Shown here one piece after another: positions 12,773-63,563 of a stretch of DNA of 64,000 nucleotides. Where the stretch lies: the NCBI GenBank assembly GCA_001029795.1, contig CP011216.1, positions 134,903 to 198,902 of the forward strand. Direction: 5' to 3'. This DNA is from a candidate division Kazan bacterium GW2011_GWA1_50_15. GTDB lineage: Bacteria; Patescibacteriota; Kazan-3B-28. The stretch's first letter is position 1, and each line of letters begins with the position of its first letter. The translations under genes were made by a program, and so were the position numbers. The notes beneath the pieces are model-generated. The model was not told the DNA's origin. It saw only the letters and a program-made list of their open reading frames with translations, and ran no database searches.

Positions 12773-13046
12773 GTAGCGCCTGCGTCGCGCTACACCGACG
12801 GTTACTTTCCTCTTGGGGAAAGTAACCAAAGCCGCTCCGCCAGTCGCTCTGGCTGTGAATAGAAAGCAAAACTAGCTTTCTGGCTTTCGGCGAACTTCTC
12901 CTCGCTGACTCGTTGTCAAACAACGCCTGCGCTGCGCTAGTTTTGCTAATTCACAACGCCAGATCTCCAATGGCGGAAGGGGAGAGGGGAAGGGACGTAG
13001 TTTGCTCGATGGGGGTGGAGGTAGACGACTCTTCGCTGAAGGGCCG
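12773..13046 (+). repeat. Mosaic intergenic repeat family 1, copy A
   Basis: Hairpin 1 is gtagcgc/gcgctac (12773-12793). Hairpin 2 (ggttactttcc-tcttgg-ggaaagtaacc, 12800-12827) is identical to the one at 58553-58580. The body is a diverged relative of copies B and C and ends in ctgaagggccg. Confidence 0.65.
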
Positions 13047-57179: not shown

Positions 57180-57650
57180 ATGAAAACAAGTAGAACGGCG
57201 TGGCGACTGATGAAATATTTTATGCGACTCTCGGATGAGATAGGGGAACTTGTCTTGGATGAGTTGCGACAACGCAAACTGCGCAAGAGCCCGCGGGCGG
57301 GGGAAGGTAGATCCTTTCGTTATCTGAAGCAGGCGGGTTATCTTGTTCCATTAGGAGAAAATCGTTTTCAGATTACTGATCTTGCGCGGATTAATTTTTT
57401 AGCCGAACTGGTCAAGGGACGCAAACCAGACGGTCAGTGGAGAATAGTGATTTTTGATATTCCTGAAAAATTGAAACGCAGTCGCAATGTCTTTCGCCGT
57501 CATCTTAGAGAATTGGGCTTCCGAATGAAACAACAGAGCGTATGGGTGTCGCCGTTACCCTGTGATGATTTGGTGGAGTTGGTAATAAAATATCATGGTC
57601 TGGGTCGGTACGCCGAGTTGTTGGTAGGGACAACAGTAGCACTACACTGA
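57180..57650 (+). CDS. Putative regulator: N-terminal winged-helix plus C-terminal Cas2/PaaX-C-like domain
   Basis: 156 aa; the N-terminal half looks like a wHTH, and the C-terminal WRIVIFDIPEKLKRSRNVFRRHLRELGFRMKQQSVWV resembles the Cas2-like ferredoxin fold seen in PaaX-type regulators. It occupies the rimM position between the KH gene and trmD. Confidence 0.35.
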   Translation: MKTSRTAWRLMKYFMRLSDEIGELVLDELRQRKLRKSPRAGEGRSFRYLKQAGYLVPLGENRFQITDLARINFLAELVKGRKPDGQWRIVIFDIPEKLKRSRNVFRRHLRELGFRMKQQSVWVSPLPCDDLVELVIKYHGLGRYAELLVGTTVALH

Positions 57651-57747: not shown

Positions 57748-58467
57748 ATGAAGTTTACGGTGATAACGATTTTTCCGGGGTTGGTGGAGGATTATTTCAA
57801 GGAAGGGATTTTGTCCCGGGCTTTGCGGAACAAGCAGGTTGGATTAAAAGCGATTAATCCGCGCAAGTTTACGAAGGATAAGCATCAGACCGTGGATGAT
57901 GTGCCGTATGGCGGGGGGGCGGGGCTGGTCATGAAGTTGGAGCCGCTGGTGGCGGCAATTAAACAAGCGGCGAAGTCTCGTTTTCGTCATTCCGAACTTG
58001 TTTCGGAATCTAGTTATGAAACGGGGAAGATCCTGAAACGAGTTCAGGATGACGGGAAAAAAGTAAGAATTATTTTATTAGATCCGAGGGGGAGGCGGTT
58101 TACGCAGAAAGAAGCGAAGCGGCTGACGAAATATGATGAATTGATTTTTGTGTGTGGAAGATACGAAGGGATAGATGAAAGAATTAAACATTATATTGAC
58201 GAGAAATTGTCAATCGGGGATTTTGTGTTGATGGGTGGAGAATTGGGGGCGCTGACGGTAATGGAAGCGGTGGCGCGATTAATTCCAAATGTGTTGCATC
58301 ATCCGGAATCGACAAAATTTGAAAGTTTTTCCGAAGGAAATAATTTGGAACATCCGCAGTACACTCGGCCGGAGGTATTCGAGGGGCATAAAGTGCCGAA
58401 GGTACTTTTGTCTGGGCATCATGGGAAAATTGGGACGTGGAGAGAGAAACAGACCAAGAAAGCTTGA
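57748..58467 (+). CDS. trmD: tRNA (m1G37) methyltransferase TrmD
   Basis: SPOUT trefoil-knot motifs (VITIFPGL, GGGAGLVMK, CGRYEGIDERI, GGELGALTVMEAV). Confidence 0.85.
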   Translation: MKFTVITIFPGLVEDYFKEGILSRALRNKQVGLKAINPRKFTKDKHQTVDDVPYGGGAGLVMKLEPLVAAIKQAAKSRFRHSELVSESSYETGKILKRVQDDGKKVRIILLDPRGRRFTQKEAKRLTKYDELIFVCGRYEGIDERIKHYIDEKLSIGDFVLMGGELGALTVMEAVARLIPNVLHHPESTKFESFSEGNNLEHPQYTRPEVFEGHKVPKVLLSGHHGKIGTWREKQTKKA

Positions 58468-58523
58468 TTTTTTGCCTTAGGTTTTTTTGTCATTCCGGAT
58501 TTAGCTCGGAATCCTTTTTGTTT

Positions 58524-58730
58524 TTCAAGGGTCTGAGCGACCCTTGGACCGCGGTTACTTTCCTCTTGGGGAAAGTAACCAAAGCCGTGGCCCTGTTCAC
58601 TCGGCCTATTCATTGGCTAAATCGATGGGTGCTCCCGCCGAACTCGTCCCGGCTAGCCGGGACTCAAACATGCGGCTCCGCCCCAAGCGATTTAGCTCAA
58701 TTCAAGACGGCCTCGTTCCAAAGGGCCGTA
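58524..58730 (+). repeat. Mosaic intergenic repeat family 1, copy B
   Basis: Hairpin 1 is agggtc/gaccct (58526-58546). Hairpin 2 (58553-58580) is identical to copy A. The body is about 80% identical to copy C. Confidence 0.7.
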
Positions 58731-58887
58731 TTGGGGGAAAGCTTGACTGGGAGCGAGTTTTGTGCTATGTTTGGGGTGTAAGGTGGAGCGGTCGTAATCT
58801 GGATTTCTAGTGCCGCTATATCAACCACCAGCACCTTAAAGACTTGCTTACTACAGTTGGCCTATAAGGTGAAACAAGGAGACTGGG

Positions 58888-59508
58888 ATGAAACTCCTGG
58901 CCGCCCTTAAGTTTGTCGTCGAGTTGCTCACGCAGCTCGTCACCCTGGGTGAAGAAGGCCTTGGTCGGATTATGGAACGGATGAACTATATCCGCGAAAT
59001 TACCGGCCGGGTACACCTGCCCACCATCCAGGAATTCACACAATTTCTGGACCAGGCCGTAGGCCACATCGTAGACTGCGATGCTGATCCAACCATCCCC
59101 TCGGATTACAACTGGACCATCGAACGCCACATCAAGAGCGGTAAGGTTCGGCTGGAACGCCGTGGAGACACTCTGTATGTTGACGGGAAGAAGGTTATCC
59201 TTCATCTCGTCAAGCAACAGACCAGGAACGGGGTCATCCTGGGCCACGAACTCTGCAAGGAGCTCGAGAAAGGCAAGTTGGTGTTGCTCAGCGCCAACCT
59301 ACTTGACTATTTACTTGAGCACCCCGAGCTTATCCCCGATACCTGGAAGGGTAAGGCCGTGTTCTTCTGGGGCACAGTCTATCGCGGCTCGGACGGCAGC
59401 CTCAACGTTCGTTACCTCGGCTGGGACGATGGTGGGTGGAGCTGGGACTACTACTGGCTCGACTACGGCTGGTACTCGAACCGCCCGGCTGCTGTTCTCG
59501 CAAGTTAG
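58888..59508 (+). CDS. DGR target protein: C-type-lectin/FGE-like fold with C-terminal variable repeat; no signal peptide
   Basis: 206 aa. The last ~42 aa (VYRGSDGSLNVRYLGWDDGGWSWDYYWLDYGWYSNRPAAV) are encoded by the VR, which matches the TR except at TR adenines. Confidence 0.85.
   Translation: MKLLAALKFVVELLTQLVTLGEEGLGRIMERMNYIREITGRVHLPTIQEFTQFLDQAVGHIVDCDADPTIPSDYNWTIERHIKSGKVRLERRGDTLYVDGKKVILHLVKQQTRNGVILGHELCKELEKGKLVLLSANLLDYLLEHPELIPDTWKGKAVFFWGTVYRGSDGSLNVRYLGWDDGGWSWDYYWLDYGWYSNRPAAVLAS
59377..59501 (+). repeat. DGR variable repeat (VR)
   Basis: Ungapped 125-bp alignment with 59832-59956 (offset 455): 107 identical, 18 mismatches, every one at an A in the TR (A->G 13, A->T 3, A->C 2). 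Confidence 0.9.
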
Positions 59509-59528
59509 TCTTTGGACCTTGGGCCCTT

Positions 59529-59586
59529 GGATCTTCGGATCCTTTGACCTTGGTCCTGCCCGCACGGCAACGTGCGGGTTTTTTTG
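59529..59586 (+). terminator. Two tetraloop hairpins downstream of the VR (ggatc-ttcg-gatcc; cccgcacg-gcaa-cgtgcggg plus T7)
   Basis: The second hairpin plus ttttttt is an intrinsic terminator for the target gene. A GC-rich hairpin 3' of the VR is also a known DGR homing enhancer. Confidence 0.55.
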
Positions 59587-59831
59587 TTACAATGTTGCTG
59601 GAACTAGGCGAATATGCCAGAGATCACGGTTTCTGGCTGCCGAACCCAGTATCCATATGTCCAGAGTATCTCCGACTACGGTTTGAGGTAGTGTGATGTA
59701 TGTAGAAACTTCAAAAAATGAAGATACTTGGTGCGAGATATTCAGGCATTATAGATGCCGAATAAAATACAGCCCCAAGAGTTCTGCTGTACAGCAGAAT
59801 CAAGGGGTGGTGACAATGGATGGTATCTCGC

Positions 59832-59956
59832 ATAAATCGCAACTCGGACGGCAACCTCAACGTTCGTTACCTCAACTGGAACGATGGTAGGTGGAACTGG
59901 AACTACAACTGGCTCGACAACGACTGGAACTCGAACAACCCGGCTGCTGTTCTCGC
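59832..59956 (+). repeat. DGR template repeat (TR)
   Basis: Invariant partner of the VR; read in frame it encodes 13 Asn (AAC) codons (SRINRNSDGNLNVRYLNWNDGRWNWNYNWLDNDWNSNNPAAV). Confidence 0.9.
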
Positions 59957-59964
59957 TACTGTCT

Positions 59965-60330
59965 TCATTTCTCTCCCGACTTATCGGGAGAGTTTTGTCT
60001 ATTAAGCTGTCCGTTCCATCCACCCAGCATCTTGCCGATTTCATCCAGTTGAACCGAGACAGCACTGTACTTTTTGTTATCTAGTGACTTGGTCTCCCAG
60101 AGAACCATTAACAGAATTTTGAGGGTGTCAGTTTTACGGATTGCTAATCTGACATATGGAGATTTTTCGGCTCGACTAAGAAAACTGGCTTGGGCGACGG
60201 CTTCGATAACCTCAACAAAAAGGTTGTCCGCCCTTCGTCCCAAGGAATAACGATGGAGTTTGGGCAGAACTTGGTAATAGTTATACCATAGGAGGTACGC
60301 CTGTTTTAGATGTTGAAGTAGCGGGAGCAA
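59965..60330 (-). CDS. avd: DGR accessory variability determinant (Avd-like four-helix-bundle protein), opposite strand to TR and RT
   Basis: 121 aa. The C-terminal DEIGKMLGGWNGQLNRQ matches, from memory, the conserved (E)(V/I)G(R/K)(I/M)LG(S/G)W...(L/V)NR(K/Q) C-terminus of Avd / 23S-IVS four-helix-bundle proteins. TTG start; located between the TR and the RT. Confidence 0.55.
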   Translation of the reverse strand: MLPLLQHLKQAYLLWYNYYQVLPKLHRYSLGRRADNLFVEVIEAVAQASFLSRAEKSPYVRLAIRKTDTLKILLMVLWETKSLDNKKYSAVSVQLDEIGKMLGGWNGQLNRQNSPDKSGEK

Positions 60331-60351
60331 CTCTCTCTCTCTCTCTCTCTC
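60331..60351. repeat. (CT)10 dinucleotide microsatellite in the avd/RT divergent intergenic region
   Basis: ctctctctctctctctctctc sits within the 44-bp gap between the avd start (60330, minus) and the RT start (60375, plus). Confidence 0.9.
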
Positions 60352-60374
60352 GATGCCGCGGGTCGGTTCATCAT

Positions 60375-61418
60375 ATGAAAATCGCCGAAGGGTATTACGA
60401 ACACATTATCTCACTCCATAACCTCCTTGAGGCCTGGCGGGAGTTCGTGGTTGGGAAGCGAGCTAGGGTAGATGTCCAGTTGTTTGAGCGGAACTTAATG
60501 GCTAATATTATCAAACTAAATAGGGATTTGGAAGTTGGGAAATATCGGCACTCGGATTATCACCCATTTAAGATTTCTGATCCGAAACCTAGGAACATTC
60601 ATAAGGCGAGTGTCCGAGACCGATTATTGCATAAAGCCATCTATAGAATCTTATATCCGACATGGGATAAAACCTTTATTGTCGACAGCTATTCTTGTCG
60701 AAATAACAAAGGTACTCACAAGGCATTTGCTAAACTTGAGACTGTCGCTCGGAAGATTAGCCAGAATTATACCAGACCATGTTTTGCACTGAAGTGCGAT
60801 ATTAAAAGATTTTTCGACAGCGTGGATCATGGGGTGTTGATGGGACTGCTAAGGGAACGCATCGCCGATGAACGACTTTTGAAGTTGCTTGAAGAAATTA
60901 TTTTTAGTTTTTCTGTCTGGATTCCGGGTCAAGCCCGGAATGACGAAGAGGGCAAGGGGATGCCGTTGGGGAATCTGACATCGCAACTGTTTGCCAATAT
61001 CTATCTCGACCCGCTGGATAAGTTCGCGAAGCACCAACTCAAAGCCAAATATTATCTACGGTATGCAGATGATTTTATCTTTTTGGCCGATAATCCGGAT
61101 GAATTGACGGGCTACTTAGTTGAAGTTGCCAGGTTTGCGAAATCGGAACTGGAGCTCCAACTCCATCCTAACAAGATTAGTTTGAGAAAACTGAAATGGG
61201 GGATTGATTATGTTGGGTATGTCGCCCTGCCGCAATATAGCTTGCCTAGAAAGAAGACGGTCACACGAATTATTAAAAATATTCGTCGACTTTTGGCGGC
61301 GGGAGACGATGTGGCGCTGGCTAATGCGCTGCCATCGTACTTAGGGTACCTGAAACATGCCAGGAGCCGTGGGATAGTTTGCGGGCTGGAGCGGCTGATG
61401 GCGCCAAAGGGGTGGTGA
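60375..61418 (+). CDS. DGR reverse transcriptase
   Basis: 347 aa with RT motifs 1-7, including GMPLGNLTSQLFANIYL (the DGR-specific I/LGxxxSQ motif) and LRYADDFIFL (YxDD). Confidence 0.9.
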   Translation: MKIAEGYYEHIISLHNLLEAWREFVVGKRARVDVQLFERNLMANIIKLNRDLEVGKYRHSDYHPFKISDPKPRNIHKASVRDRLLHKAIYRILYPTWDKTFIVDSYSCRNNKGTHKAFAKLETVARKISQNYTRPCFALKCDIKRFFDSVDHGVLMGLLRERIADERLLKLLEEIIFSFSVWIPGQARNDEEGKGMPLGNLTSQLFANIYLDPLDKFAKHQLKAKYYLRYADDFIFLADNPDELTGYLVEVARFAKSELELQLHPNKISLRKLKWGIDYVGYVALPQYSLPRKKTVTRIIKNIRRLLAAGDDVALANALPSYLGYLKHARSRGIVCGLERLMAPKGW

Positions 61419-61586
61419 GGTACACTAGGAGAAGAAGGCGCTACGCTAGATTCCTCGACTGCGTTCGGAATGACAAAAGAGGGGCGGGGATGACGAGGAT
61501 GGATCCTGACCTGCCTGCCGGCAGGCAGGAATAAATTCAGGATGACAGAAACAAGGGTCGTTCAGGGTGACGGAGAGGGAGAAGCA

Positions 61587-63563
61587 ATGAAGTTTAAGAT
61601 TAAATCCAAATTGAAACCTGCGGGAGATCAGCCCGAAGCAATTCGGGCGTTGGTCGATGGGCTCAAAAAGAAATATCGGGACCAGACCTTGCTGGGGGTG
61701 ACGGGGTCGGGGAAGACCTTTACGATGGCCAATGTCATCGAGAAGGTGCAGAAGCCGACGCTAGTTATCGCGCACAATAAAACGCTGGCGGCGCAGTTGG
61801 CCAGCGAGTTCCGCGAATATTTTCCCGACAACGCGGTGCATTATTTCGTGTCCTACTACGACTACTATCAGCCGGAGGCGTACATCCCGCGGACCGATAC
61901 TTACATTGCCAAAGATGCCTCCATCAACGATGAGATAGATAGATTGCGCAATGCAGCGACTGAGGCGCTTTTAACTCGCAAGGATGTGATTATTGTGGCG
62001 TCAGTGTCGTGCATCTACGGTTTGGGCAATCCGGAGGTCTATCAAAATGAGAGCATCGAGTTGAGGGCGGGCAAGACCTACAAACGGGAGCGAATCCTGC
62101 GGCAGCTGACCGATATTCAATACCAACGCAACGATATCAACTTTGTTCGCGGGAGTTTTCGGGTGCGGGGCGAAGTGATGGAGATTTTTCCGGCTTATGC
62201 GGAAGTGGCGTACCGATTTGAATGGTTTGGTGATAAGTTGGAGCGGATTCGACAGGTGGAGTATTTGACCGGCGAGATTTTGAGCGAACCAAAGGAGGTG
62301 ACCATCTTTCCGGCCAAACATTTTATTACCCCACAAGACCGCTTAAAGGGAGCGATTGAAAATATTCGGACTGAACTTAGAACTCGTTTGAAGGAACTGA
62401 CGGTAGCGAATAAATTGCTGGAGGCCCAGCGGCTGGAACAGCGAACGAATTATGATATTGAAATGTTGCAGACGGTCGGATATGTTTCCGGAGTTGAAAA
62501 CTATTCGCGGTATTTGGACGGACGGGAAGCCGGCTCTCCGCCATCAACTTTGCTCCATTATTTTCCGGACGATTTTTTGATGTTCATTGATGAATCGCAT
62601 ATGACTTTGCCGCAAATTCGCGGGATGTATAACGGCGACCGGGCCAGAAAAGAAGTGTTGATCGAGCACGGGTTCCGCCTGCCCAGCGCGTTTGATAACC
62701 GCCCACTGCAGTTTTTGGAATTCGAGAAATTGGTTAACCAAGTGATTTATACTTCCGCGACGCCCAGCCAAGAGGAACTTGGTAATAGCAAACAAATCGT
62801 GGAGCAGATCGTGCGGCCGACCGGTCTAGTGGACCCGGCGGTAGAGGTGCGGCCGATCGAGGGGCAGGTGGACGACTTGATGGAAGAGATTCGCAAGCGG
62901 GTGGCTGTCCATCAGCGGGTGTTGGTGACAACGCTAACCAAAAAGATGGCCGAGGATTTAACCAGCTTTTTGCAGGAGGCGGATATTAAAGTTCAATACA
63001 TTCATTCGGATGTGGAAACCTTAGAGCGGATAGATATTCTCCGCGACCTGCGGTTGGGCAAATATGATGTGCTGGTGGGAATTAACTTGCTTCGCGAGGG
63101 GCTGGACCTACCGGAGGTATCGTTGGTGGCGATTTTGGACGCGGACAAAGAGGGCTTTTTACGGTCAGATACTGCTTTAATCCAAACCTTTGGACGGGCA
63201 GCTCGGCATTTGAACGGCAGAGTCATCATGTACGCTGATAAAATTACCGGCTCAATGCAACGAGCGCTGGAGGAAACCGACCGACGGAGAGAAAAGCAAG
63301 TTGAATATAATAAGAAACATAAAATTACGCCGACAACGATTATTAAAGCGATTAAGAGTATTCACGCGTCAACCGGCGAGGAAGAATTGCCGCCGGAGCA
63401 GGATATCAATAAATTTGCCAAGGCGGCCAACGCCGAAGAGCTGAAGGCAATGATTCGCGAGCTAGAAGATGAGATGGACTTGGCGGCGAAGAATTTGGAG
63501 TTCGAAAAAGCGGCGGAGTTGAGAGATAGGGTAGAATTGCTAAGAGGGGAGCTAGGGAAGTAA
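61587..63563 (+). CDS. uvrB: Excinuclease ABC subunit B
   Basis: [15 protein letters not shown] Walker A, a beta-hairpin region, helicase motifs and a C-terminal UvrB/UvrC interaction coiled coil ([14 protein letters not shown]...FEKAAELRD). Start placed at MKFKIKS. Confidence 0.9.

Follow-up and report, generated by a model that had tools for sequence, protein, structure and literature searches.

We analysed a 64,000-nt stretch of contig CP011216.1 from candidate division Kazan bacterium GW2011_GWA1_50_15, a member of the candidate phyla radiation (CPR)/Patescibacteria lineage; the whole stretch is hereafter referred to as the window, and coordinates are positions in it unless another contig is named. 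The locus at 58888-61418 is very probably a chromosomal diversity-generating retroelement (DGR) of architecture B3, in which a target gene ending in a variable repeat (VR) is followed by a template repeat (TR), an avd gene on the reverse strand and a gene for a reverse transcriptase (RT), with a conserved structured RNA around the TR. Completeness of the DGR (target with VR, TR, Avd and DGR-type RT) is supported by the agreement of each test run. The cassette and its location are ordinary: it is a member of an abundant, already known CPR type, and the genome has been public for years. What we consider new, judging from sequence comparison across related loci, is the RNA, in which covariation supports a scaffold placed before the TR.

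Repeats and genes of the cassette

Realignment of the two repeats reproduced the ungapped pairing reported in the initial annotation, in which the VR (59377-59501) and the TR (59832-59956) lie at an offset of 455 nt and share 107 of 125 positions. Every one of the 18 mismatches is at a TR adenine (12 A>G, 4 A>T, and 2 A>C), which has a chance probability of 1.9e-12 given the 35 adenines of the TR, 17 of them unchanged. In the reading frame of the target, 17 of the 18 mismatches and 34 of the 35 TR adenines occupy codon positions 1 or 2. The 13 TR codons annotated as AAC do all encode asparagine, although they comprise 12 AAC and one AAT. The homology breaks off at 59501/59956, right after an 18-nt A-free block (CCCGGCTGCTGTTCTCGC). 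At the other end, the first four aligned positions (59377-59380 / 59832-59835) read GTCT against ATAA and are probably not homologous; they are doubtful because 59832-59833 sit in the 3' strand of an RNA helix, P3, described below, and the homology in relatives begins at ATCGCAAC. The repeat bounds given in the initial annotation are thus secure from 59381/59836 onwards, while the first four positions, and with them 3 of the 18 mismatches, are not. The secure repeat (VR 59381-59501 / TR 59836-59956) spans 121 bp and has 15 of 15 mismatches at A (P = 1e-10). The figure of 4^18 possible variants tallies only the positions already changed; 32-35 template adenines are available. Neither a second VR nor a target paralogue was found within the 64-kb window.

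The target ends in a compact C-type-lectin-like domain (residues ~97-206), whose variable face is specified by the VR. The repeat lies in a ligand-binding fold, with template adenines at codon positions 1 and 2. By sequence, the target had no match in Pfam, NCBIfam, or the PDB, and its N-terminus is a hydrophobic, amphipathic-looking helix (KD19 = 1.73). A nested hairpin follows the VR; a DNA fold of this hairpin and the adjoining target-gene terminator gave z = -5.55, and the hairpin is not GC-rich. Among five related VRs the apical stems of this hairpin differ in sequence with the pairing kept, and comparable nested hairpins occur 3' of the VR in most of 41 loci. We regard the hairpin (59514-59556) as a candidate target-recognition hairpin or cruciform, by analogy with a known DGR discussed below.

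The RT open reading frame (ORF) starts 419 nt 3' of the TR and matches Pfam RVT_1 (4e-22). The initial annotation had assigned it to the DGR type from LGxxxSQ and YADD motifs, and this assignment stands: LGNLTSQ and YADD are both present, and the best solved relative is 8ub7 (an entry titled only 'Reverse transcriptase'), with E = 4e-45 over the full length, compared with 6e-20 for group II intron RTs. We take the 8ub7 series to be the Bordetella BPP-1 bRT-Avd-RNA complex. When the RT was aligned to the 8ub7 chain, residues F66, R74, I76, G182, and Q187 in the numbering of the bRT preprint were conserved and I181 was replaced by Leu; the preprint names the conserved residues as contacts of the template and of the incoming nucleotide (10.1101/2023.10.23.563531). 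The Avd-like gene reported to lie between TR and RT was also recovered, on the minus strand, a detail that the initial annotation had left unstated. Its product matched NCBIfam DivGenRetAVD with 60.3 bits (cutoff 80) over model positions 1-102 of 104, and Pfam bAvd with 39.6 bits (cutoff 40).

Two features of this region vary among relatives. The RT carries an in-frame palindromic insert (DNA 60920-60944, GATTCCGGGTCAAGCCCGGAATGAC) that adds 'IPGQARND' directly before LGxxxSQ; it is absent in the syntenic locus L003, present in L001, and larger in L007. The (CT)n run that separates the start codons of the divergent avd and RT genes is 21 nt long here and in five identical contigs, 19 nt in the 99.95%-identical L094 (the sole indel), 37 nt in L007, and 13 nt in L008, and it is absent in L001 and L003. 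Depending on the gene caller, Avd is 92, 121, 129, or 135 aa long. Speculatively, the (CT)n run may be prone to slippage and adjust how strongly avd or RT is expressed.

Comparison with relatives placed the cassette within a large family. We found 107 target homologues in a protein collection (~170-280 aa, most 170-220), of which the named ones were all from Patescibacteria, and 381 target-related stretches in contigs representing one genome per species. Close homologues (82-96% identical) differ from the target almost exclusively at A-templated VR residues. The TRs of L001, L003, and L007 are nearly identical to the TR here and their VRs differ, with mismatches at TR adenines in 8/8 cases in L001, 16/17 in L003, and 24/24 and 22/24 for the two targets of L007. 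About 40 loci, each from a different species, carry a VR at the target's 3' end and a ~123-nt TR lying 380-560 nt downstream, with mismatches almost all at TR adenines. An avd gene was detected in 37 of 41 loci, always on the minus strand and 3-59 nt after the TR; 33 of the 41 have avd(-) together with RT(+), the RT lying ~400-520 nt after the TR, and the remaining 4 of the 37 have avd alone. The neighbourhoods of the cassette differ: L003 is syntenic (trmD/uvrB), L001 lies by recO and an integrase gene, and L007 lies between sortase and Mur-ligase genes. Taken together, these sequence patterns indicate that the DGR family has been active over evolutionary time.

Several arrangements within the family depart from the single-target cassette. 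L007 (6001-8005 of a 690-kb contig) has two tandem target genes whose VRs both match one TR. Of 87 target-family loci, 44 lack the TR RNA and also avd and RT over a distance of 4 kb; these stand-alone loci may be undiversified paralogues, or they may be served remotely by a DGR at another genomic position. Three loci (L009, L025, and L034) have a target, a VR, and the TR-containing RNA, with avd and RT undetected in the following kilobases; they may represent template RNAs separated from their enzymes or decayed cassettes.

Structured RNA around the template repeat

The ~240 nt between the target terminator and the TR are non-coding and highly conserved across loci in different contexts. We aligned 39 loci over the interval corresponding to 59599-60003 (alignment A4), predicted helices with RNAalifold, and then counted pairs; unsupported pairs inside the TR were removed, and one long-range helix, spotted by eye, was added. 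The resulting model comprises 68 pairs in 11 helices (Table 1), and 95.1% of its cells form a standard pair, compared with 40-50% in a slid control in which the 3' partners were moved by 1-3 columns. Compensatory changes on both sides were observed at 54 of the 68 pairs, compared with 24-34 in the slid controls, and none of 500 shuffles equalled any of the observed measures. As a single sequence, the DGR RNA had a minimum free energy with z = -3.75.

Covariation was distributed over the leader and the 3' flank. In P1, for example, pair 11/76 is UA in 20 sequences and CG in 19, and the two main segments of P2 show compensatory changes in 13 of 13 pairs. The closing helix of the P3 domain has such changes in 10 of 12 pairs, and the hairpin 3' of the TR (59971-59992) in 4 of 6. 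This last hairpin was also called by the terminator scan and lies within the C-terminal tail of the convergent avd ORF; it is terminator-like, and by analogy it is a candidate Avd-binding stem-loop. The long-range helix, in which the centre strand of the leader pairs with a strand 3' of the TR, is paired in 90.9% of cells and has compensatory changes in 6 of 9 pairs. Its mean duplex energy is -6.9 kcal/mol compared with -3.1 kcal/mol in shuffles, and 38 of the 39 loci lie at or below -4 kcal/mol. The linker TACTTG that follows the centre strand is nearly invariant.

The borders of the TR/VR homology coincide with these helices. In 37 of 39 loci the homology begins within 0-4 nt of the end of P3, and in 38 of 39 it ends between -3 and +5 nt from the long-range strand, which suggests that the copied unit is delimited by P3 and the long-range helix. 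Upstream of the RNA, a TAnAAT-like hexamer is conserved across loci at the -10-like position, and TGTTACAAT is a putative promoter of the DGR RNA; a consensus promoter scan missed this box because no -35 box is present.

A few other pairings were considered and set aside. The local hairpin CUUCA-AAAAA-UGAAG, a competitor of the long-range duplex seen when the sequence is folded singly, is unconserved (mean -2.2 compared with -1.8 kcal/mol in shuffles). Pairs placed by RNAalifold inside the TR, and a pairing of 'CCAG' in the leader with 'CUGG' in the TR, showed no covariation and were dropped, and a match of 6 nt that this strain shows between the TR end and the 5' strand of P3 lacks conservation.

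We then used a covariance model of the centre strand and the P3 domain (R1) to locate the RNA. R1 gave one match per locus, always on the TR strand and just 5' of the TR, and in the 64-kb window its single match was at 59711-59840 (106.9 bits). The RNA was found in 33 of 34 RT-bearing loci and was absent from the 44 stand-alone target homologues. Nine of the 80 loci listed from metagenome contigs retrieved via a linker 14-mer passed R1; the 14-mer matches were mostly due to chance. Several metagenome R1 loci carry avd(-), RT(+), and an A-biased VR in targets unmatched by the target here. Since leader RNA, avd, and RT travel with unrelated targets, the RNA appears to belong to the RT-Avd module and not to the target, and the sequences point to an RT-Avd-RNA module that is exchanged among target families. 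In five metagenome loci (L142, L169, L121, L157, and L162), the leader RNA, a reversed avd, and RT stand beside targets with different N-terminal parts and VRs.

Table 1. Features of the DGR locus, in window coordinates
Feature	Position	Strand	Description
Target (variable protein)	58888-59508	+	206 aa; N-terminal helices, beta-rich middle, C-terminal compact C-type-lectin-like domain
VR	59381-59501	+	Ends 7 nt short of the target ORF end
VR 3' block	59484-59501	+	Last 18 nt of VR; A-free, GC-rich, common to TR; resembles IMH (initiation of mutagenic homing sequence)
Nested imperfect hairpin	59514-59556	+	12 nt 3' of VR; apical stem GGATC-TTCG-GATCC
Target intrinsic terminator	59558-59586	+	9-bp stem, then T7
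-10-like box	59585-59593	+	TGTTACAAT; extended -10-like, 6-8 nt 5' of conserved RNA start; putative promoter
DGR RNA	59599-59996	+	~398 nt; structured leader, TR, 3' strand and hairpin; ends predicted
P1	59607-59641	+	Leader helix; GGC/GCC plus GCCAGAGATC/GGTTTCTGGC; GAATAT internal loop
P2	59654-59702	+	Leader helix; three-segment hairpin
Centre strand	59716-59724 (59716-59730 with linker)	+	AAATGAAGA; pairs with 59962-59970, 3' of TR
P3 domain	59731-59833	+	12-bp closing helix, 59731-59742 / 59822-59833
P3a	59745-59759	+	Hairpin inside P3; P3a and P3b occur with conserved AAUAAAAUACA and GGUGGUG stretches
P3b	59772-59808	+	Hairpin inside P3
TR	59836-59956	+	32 A; 12 AAC codons in VR frame; A-free 3' block 59939-59956
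3' strand and hairpin	59962-59996	+	TCTTCATTT (centre-strand partner, 59962-59970), hairpin CTCTCCCG-ACTTAT-CGGGAGAG, TTTT
avd	59965-60330	-	121 aa, TTG start; convergent with TR, stop codon 9 nt from TR end
(CT)n run	60331-60351		Between divergent avd and RT starts
DGR RT	60375-61418	+	347 aa; LGNLTSQ and YADD motifs; in-frame palindromic insert

Proposed mechanism and alternative explanations

Given a single strand that lies upstream of the TR yet pairs on either side of it, we propose that Patescibacteria B3 DGRs use a circularly permuted DGR RNA, in which the priming strand, the stop helix, and the protein-binding scaffold would all come from the ~230-nt upstream leader, the whole forming a self-contained ~400-nt gene, convergent with avd, that has its own promoter and terminator. 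We give this proposal an even chance of being correct. Under it, the RNA would be transcribed independently from the -10-like box at 59585-59593 and would end at the hairpin and U-tract at 59971-59996. The continuous leader strand AAAUGAAGA-UACUUG-GUGCGAGAUAUU would pair just 3' of the TR and then just 5' of it, looping the TR out between the two helices. By analogy with Bordetella, the first helix would place the leader adenosine at ~59724 where it could start cDNA synthesis in cis from the TR's 3' edge, with the first templated base at 59957-61, and P3 would stop the RT at the 5' edge. P1, P2, P3a/b, and the 3' hairpin may serve as binding sites for RT and Avd. In the next step the VR would be exchanged for the adenine-mutagenised cDNA, guided by the 18-nt A-free block and by the hairpin that follows the VR, and the outcome would be an altered ligand-binding surface on the target.

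A number of observations weigh against this reading of the locus. The promoter, the RNA ends, the priming nucleotide, and the stop are predictions, and the covariation of the long-range helix comes from few sequences per pair. A covarying partner for the A-free 3' end of the TR was sought across the RNA and none was found. The partner of the primer strand lies 3-5 nt outside the TR/VR homology here, whereas in Bordetella it lies inside the TR. Among the proteins, the Avd scores are slightly under both curated cutoffs, and the palindromic insert of the RT adjoins a catalytic-site motif, though several lineages retain it. Finally, the identical 206-aa target, VR included, occurs on at least 24 contigs from many samples and from different projects. 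Ongoing diversification is therefore not visible at the consensus level in this strain, and current activity of the DGR in it is unproven.

These last points would be accounted for if the element is a real DGR that is now silent or nearly so here, with the VR a frozen allele kept by selection or the element repressed or impaired, for example through the RT insert or the (CT)n state. We consider this rather unlikely, yet deserving of serious weight. Besides the recurrent VR and the in-frame insert in the RT, several contigs 5-6.6 kb long match the window at 100% identity (including GCA_003484385.1, over 6.6 kb), and the one near relative with a different VR tail (L088, 97.6% identical) differs at non-A sites too, so that it is not clean evidence of recent retrohoming. 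As L088 differs also in the flank, we did not use it as a within-population VR variant bearing on activity. On the other hand, all ORFs are intact, the RNA has lost none of the conserved helices and reaches 106.9 bits in the family model, and the RT insert also occurs in L001 and, in larger form, in L007, each of which has its own diversified VRs; moreover, minority VR variants are hidden by consensus assemblies. A different objection concerns the RNA: a functional spacer-like RNA might lie downstream of the TR as in Bordetella, antisense to avd, leaving the upstream leader to serve stability or regulation or to be a separate small RNA. A downstream spacer is the sole arrangement shown experimentally, and conserved structure 3' of the hairpin would be masked by the coding constraints of avd. 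Nevertheless, we hold this arrangement to be improbable here, given that right behind the TR comes a conserved hairpin and U-tract resembling a terminator, that the leader strand pairs with both TR flanks and the homology borders coincide with those helices, and that the leader always accompanies avd and RT whatever the target. We attach hardly any probability to an origin of the RT from a group II intron, a retron, or a defence RT, with the TR/VR likeness arising through duplication and biased mutation. The best NCBIfam match of the RT is indeed a group II intron RT/maturase model, and no DGR-RT model is among its NCBIfam matches; the score of 138 bits is, however, far under the 300-bit cutoff, and 8ub7 is a much better solved relative. 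Such an origin would also have to accommodate the adjacent Avd and the A-only mismatches (P = 2e-12), a pattern repeated in ~40 species, and Rfam found no group II intron or retron RNA.

The circularly permuted RNA, if confirmed, would imply that RNA control of reverse transcription is a modular, rearrangeable feature of DGRs and that a compact RT-Avd-RNA unit (~1.8 kb) serves many unrelated target families. For DGR reverse transcription, the sole mechanistic model is based on a single phage element, in which the scaffold follows the template. Our comparison of 39 loci defines a different arrangement at nucleotide resolution, with a predicted priming site and a predicted stop helix, and thus offers a test of whether RNA-guided priming and stopping are general in DGRs. 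In addition, the covariance model can be used to locate TRs in Patescibacteria, and the small RT-Avd-RNA module might be engineered for targeted mutagenesis.

Genomic setting and comparison with known systems

Palindromic elements are frequent around the cassette. Two in-frame hairpin elements in trmD (57984-58055) add 17 aa to TrmD relative to L003, and together with the insert in the RT they are reminiscent of Rickettsia palindromic elements. L091, an otherwise identical 5.9-kb contig from another sample, shows three substitutions only, all in the trmD palindromic insert (window 57925-57941). The intergenic flanks of the DGR (58467-58887 and 61420-61590) are dense in short GC-rich palindromes (GTCATTCCGG...CCGGAATC, CCTGCCTGCCGGCAGGCAGG), and a 41-nt element, GGTTACTTTCCTCTTGGGGAAAGTAACC (58552-58587), is found again at 12794-12834. 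L015, L052, and L056 have similar palindromes inserted in the leader of the DGR RNA or in the flank of the VR. Two genes upstream of the DGR, at 57180-57650, lies a 156-aa gene with a PaaX central/Cas2-like domain (Pfam PaaX_M, 8e-21; TIGR01573 cas2, 27.5 bits, barely above cutoff); no CRISPR array was noticed nearby, and no dedicated follow-up search was made for one.

The initial annotation had called a DGR between trmD and uvrB unusual for a reduced genome, a view that is unsupported given what is known of CPR DGRs. DGRs are significantly enriched in CPR/Patescibacteria, and one DGR clade (clade 2) is restricted to Patescibacteria (Roux 2021, PMC8144416). Architecture B3, that is TR-(avd)-RT, accounts for 90% of CPR DGRs (Wu 2018, PMC5758913). 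Targets of the Patescibacteria clade usually lack recognisable transmembrane or other domains (Roux 2021, PMC8144416). The locus analysed here agrees with CPR B3 DGRs in gene order and strands, including the reversed avd that is typical of the Patescibacteria DGR clade, in its small target with a C-terminal VR and a domain not recognisable by sequence, and in its Patescibacteria host, AAC-rich TR, and cellular rather than phage context; nothing within the cassette sets it apart. For the target, the closest known systems include DGR variable proteins with C-type lectin folds (Mtd, 1yu0; TvpA, 2y3c) and FGE-like (formylglycine-generating enzyme-like) domains. In the accessible literature we found no description of RNA structure around the TR of CPR DGRs or of its permuted layout.

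At the level of RNA families, Rfam at gathering thresholds, which include the RT motifs, matched nothing at this locus or in 17 related loci. Below threshold, the P3 domain (59700-59840, +) resembled RT-11 (RF03106; 25.1 compared with 143.5 bits) and RT-16 (RF03019; 24.0 compared with 50), the likeness consisting of a AUAAAAUACAGCC...AAGxGGxGGUG core, the hairpin layout, and the nearby RT gene. RT-11 and RT-16 are RT-associated RNA motifs of unknown function, and some RT motifs have been suggested to belong to DGRs, RT-10 being the Bordetella spacer (Weinberg 2017, PMC5737381). RT-10 itself had no Rfam match here, and P3 is at most a distant, uncurated relative of RT-11 and RT-16.

A further comparison is with Bordetella phage BPP-1, whose RT is the closest solved relative (E = 4e-45) and which shares with this locus the presence of Avd and the adenine-specific difference between TR and VR. 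The cis-primed RT RNA of Bordetella consists of 20 nt of avd, the TR, and a 140-nt downstream spacer (Sp). The 3' part of the TR is the partner of Sp 47-56, which contributes A56 as the priming adenosine; two nt further on, a duplex of Sp 59-70 with the stretch of avd immediately 5' of the TR forms the 'cPRT Stop', and a stem-loop adjoining the TR binds Avd (10.1101/2023.10.23.563531). In Bordetella one continuous strand forms two duplexes flanking the TR, and covariation supports the same for 59716-59724/59962-59970 and 59731-59742/59822-59833 here. Each system also has a stem-loop beside the TR 3' end, and the hairpin that follows the VR here resembles, as a candidate counterpart, the inverted repeat reported to be required for efficient homing in Bordetella (Guo 2011, PMC3240598). 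The two differ in where the control elements lie. Here the continuous strand and most of the covarying scaffold (~230 nt) stand upstream of the TR, with ~40 nt after it, whereas Bordetella has 20 nt before and 140 nt after; the linker is 6 nt compared with 2 nt; and avd is on the other strand, so that its mRNA does not form the 5' flank of the TR. The upstream scaffold fits this gene order, in which the space downstream of the TR is taken up by avd on the opposite strand. The survey in the same preprint used a window of 40 nt upstream and 100 nt downstream of the TR (10.1101/2023.10.23.563531), and with such a window the centre strand and the scaffold would have been missed in this large clade.

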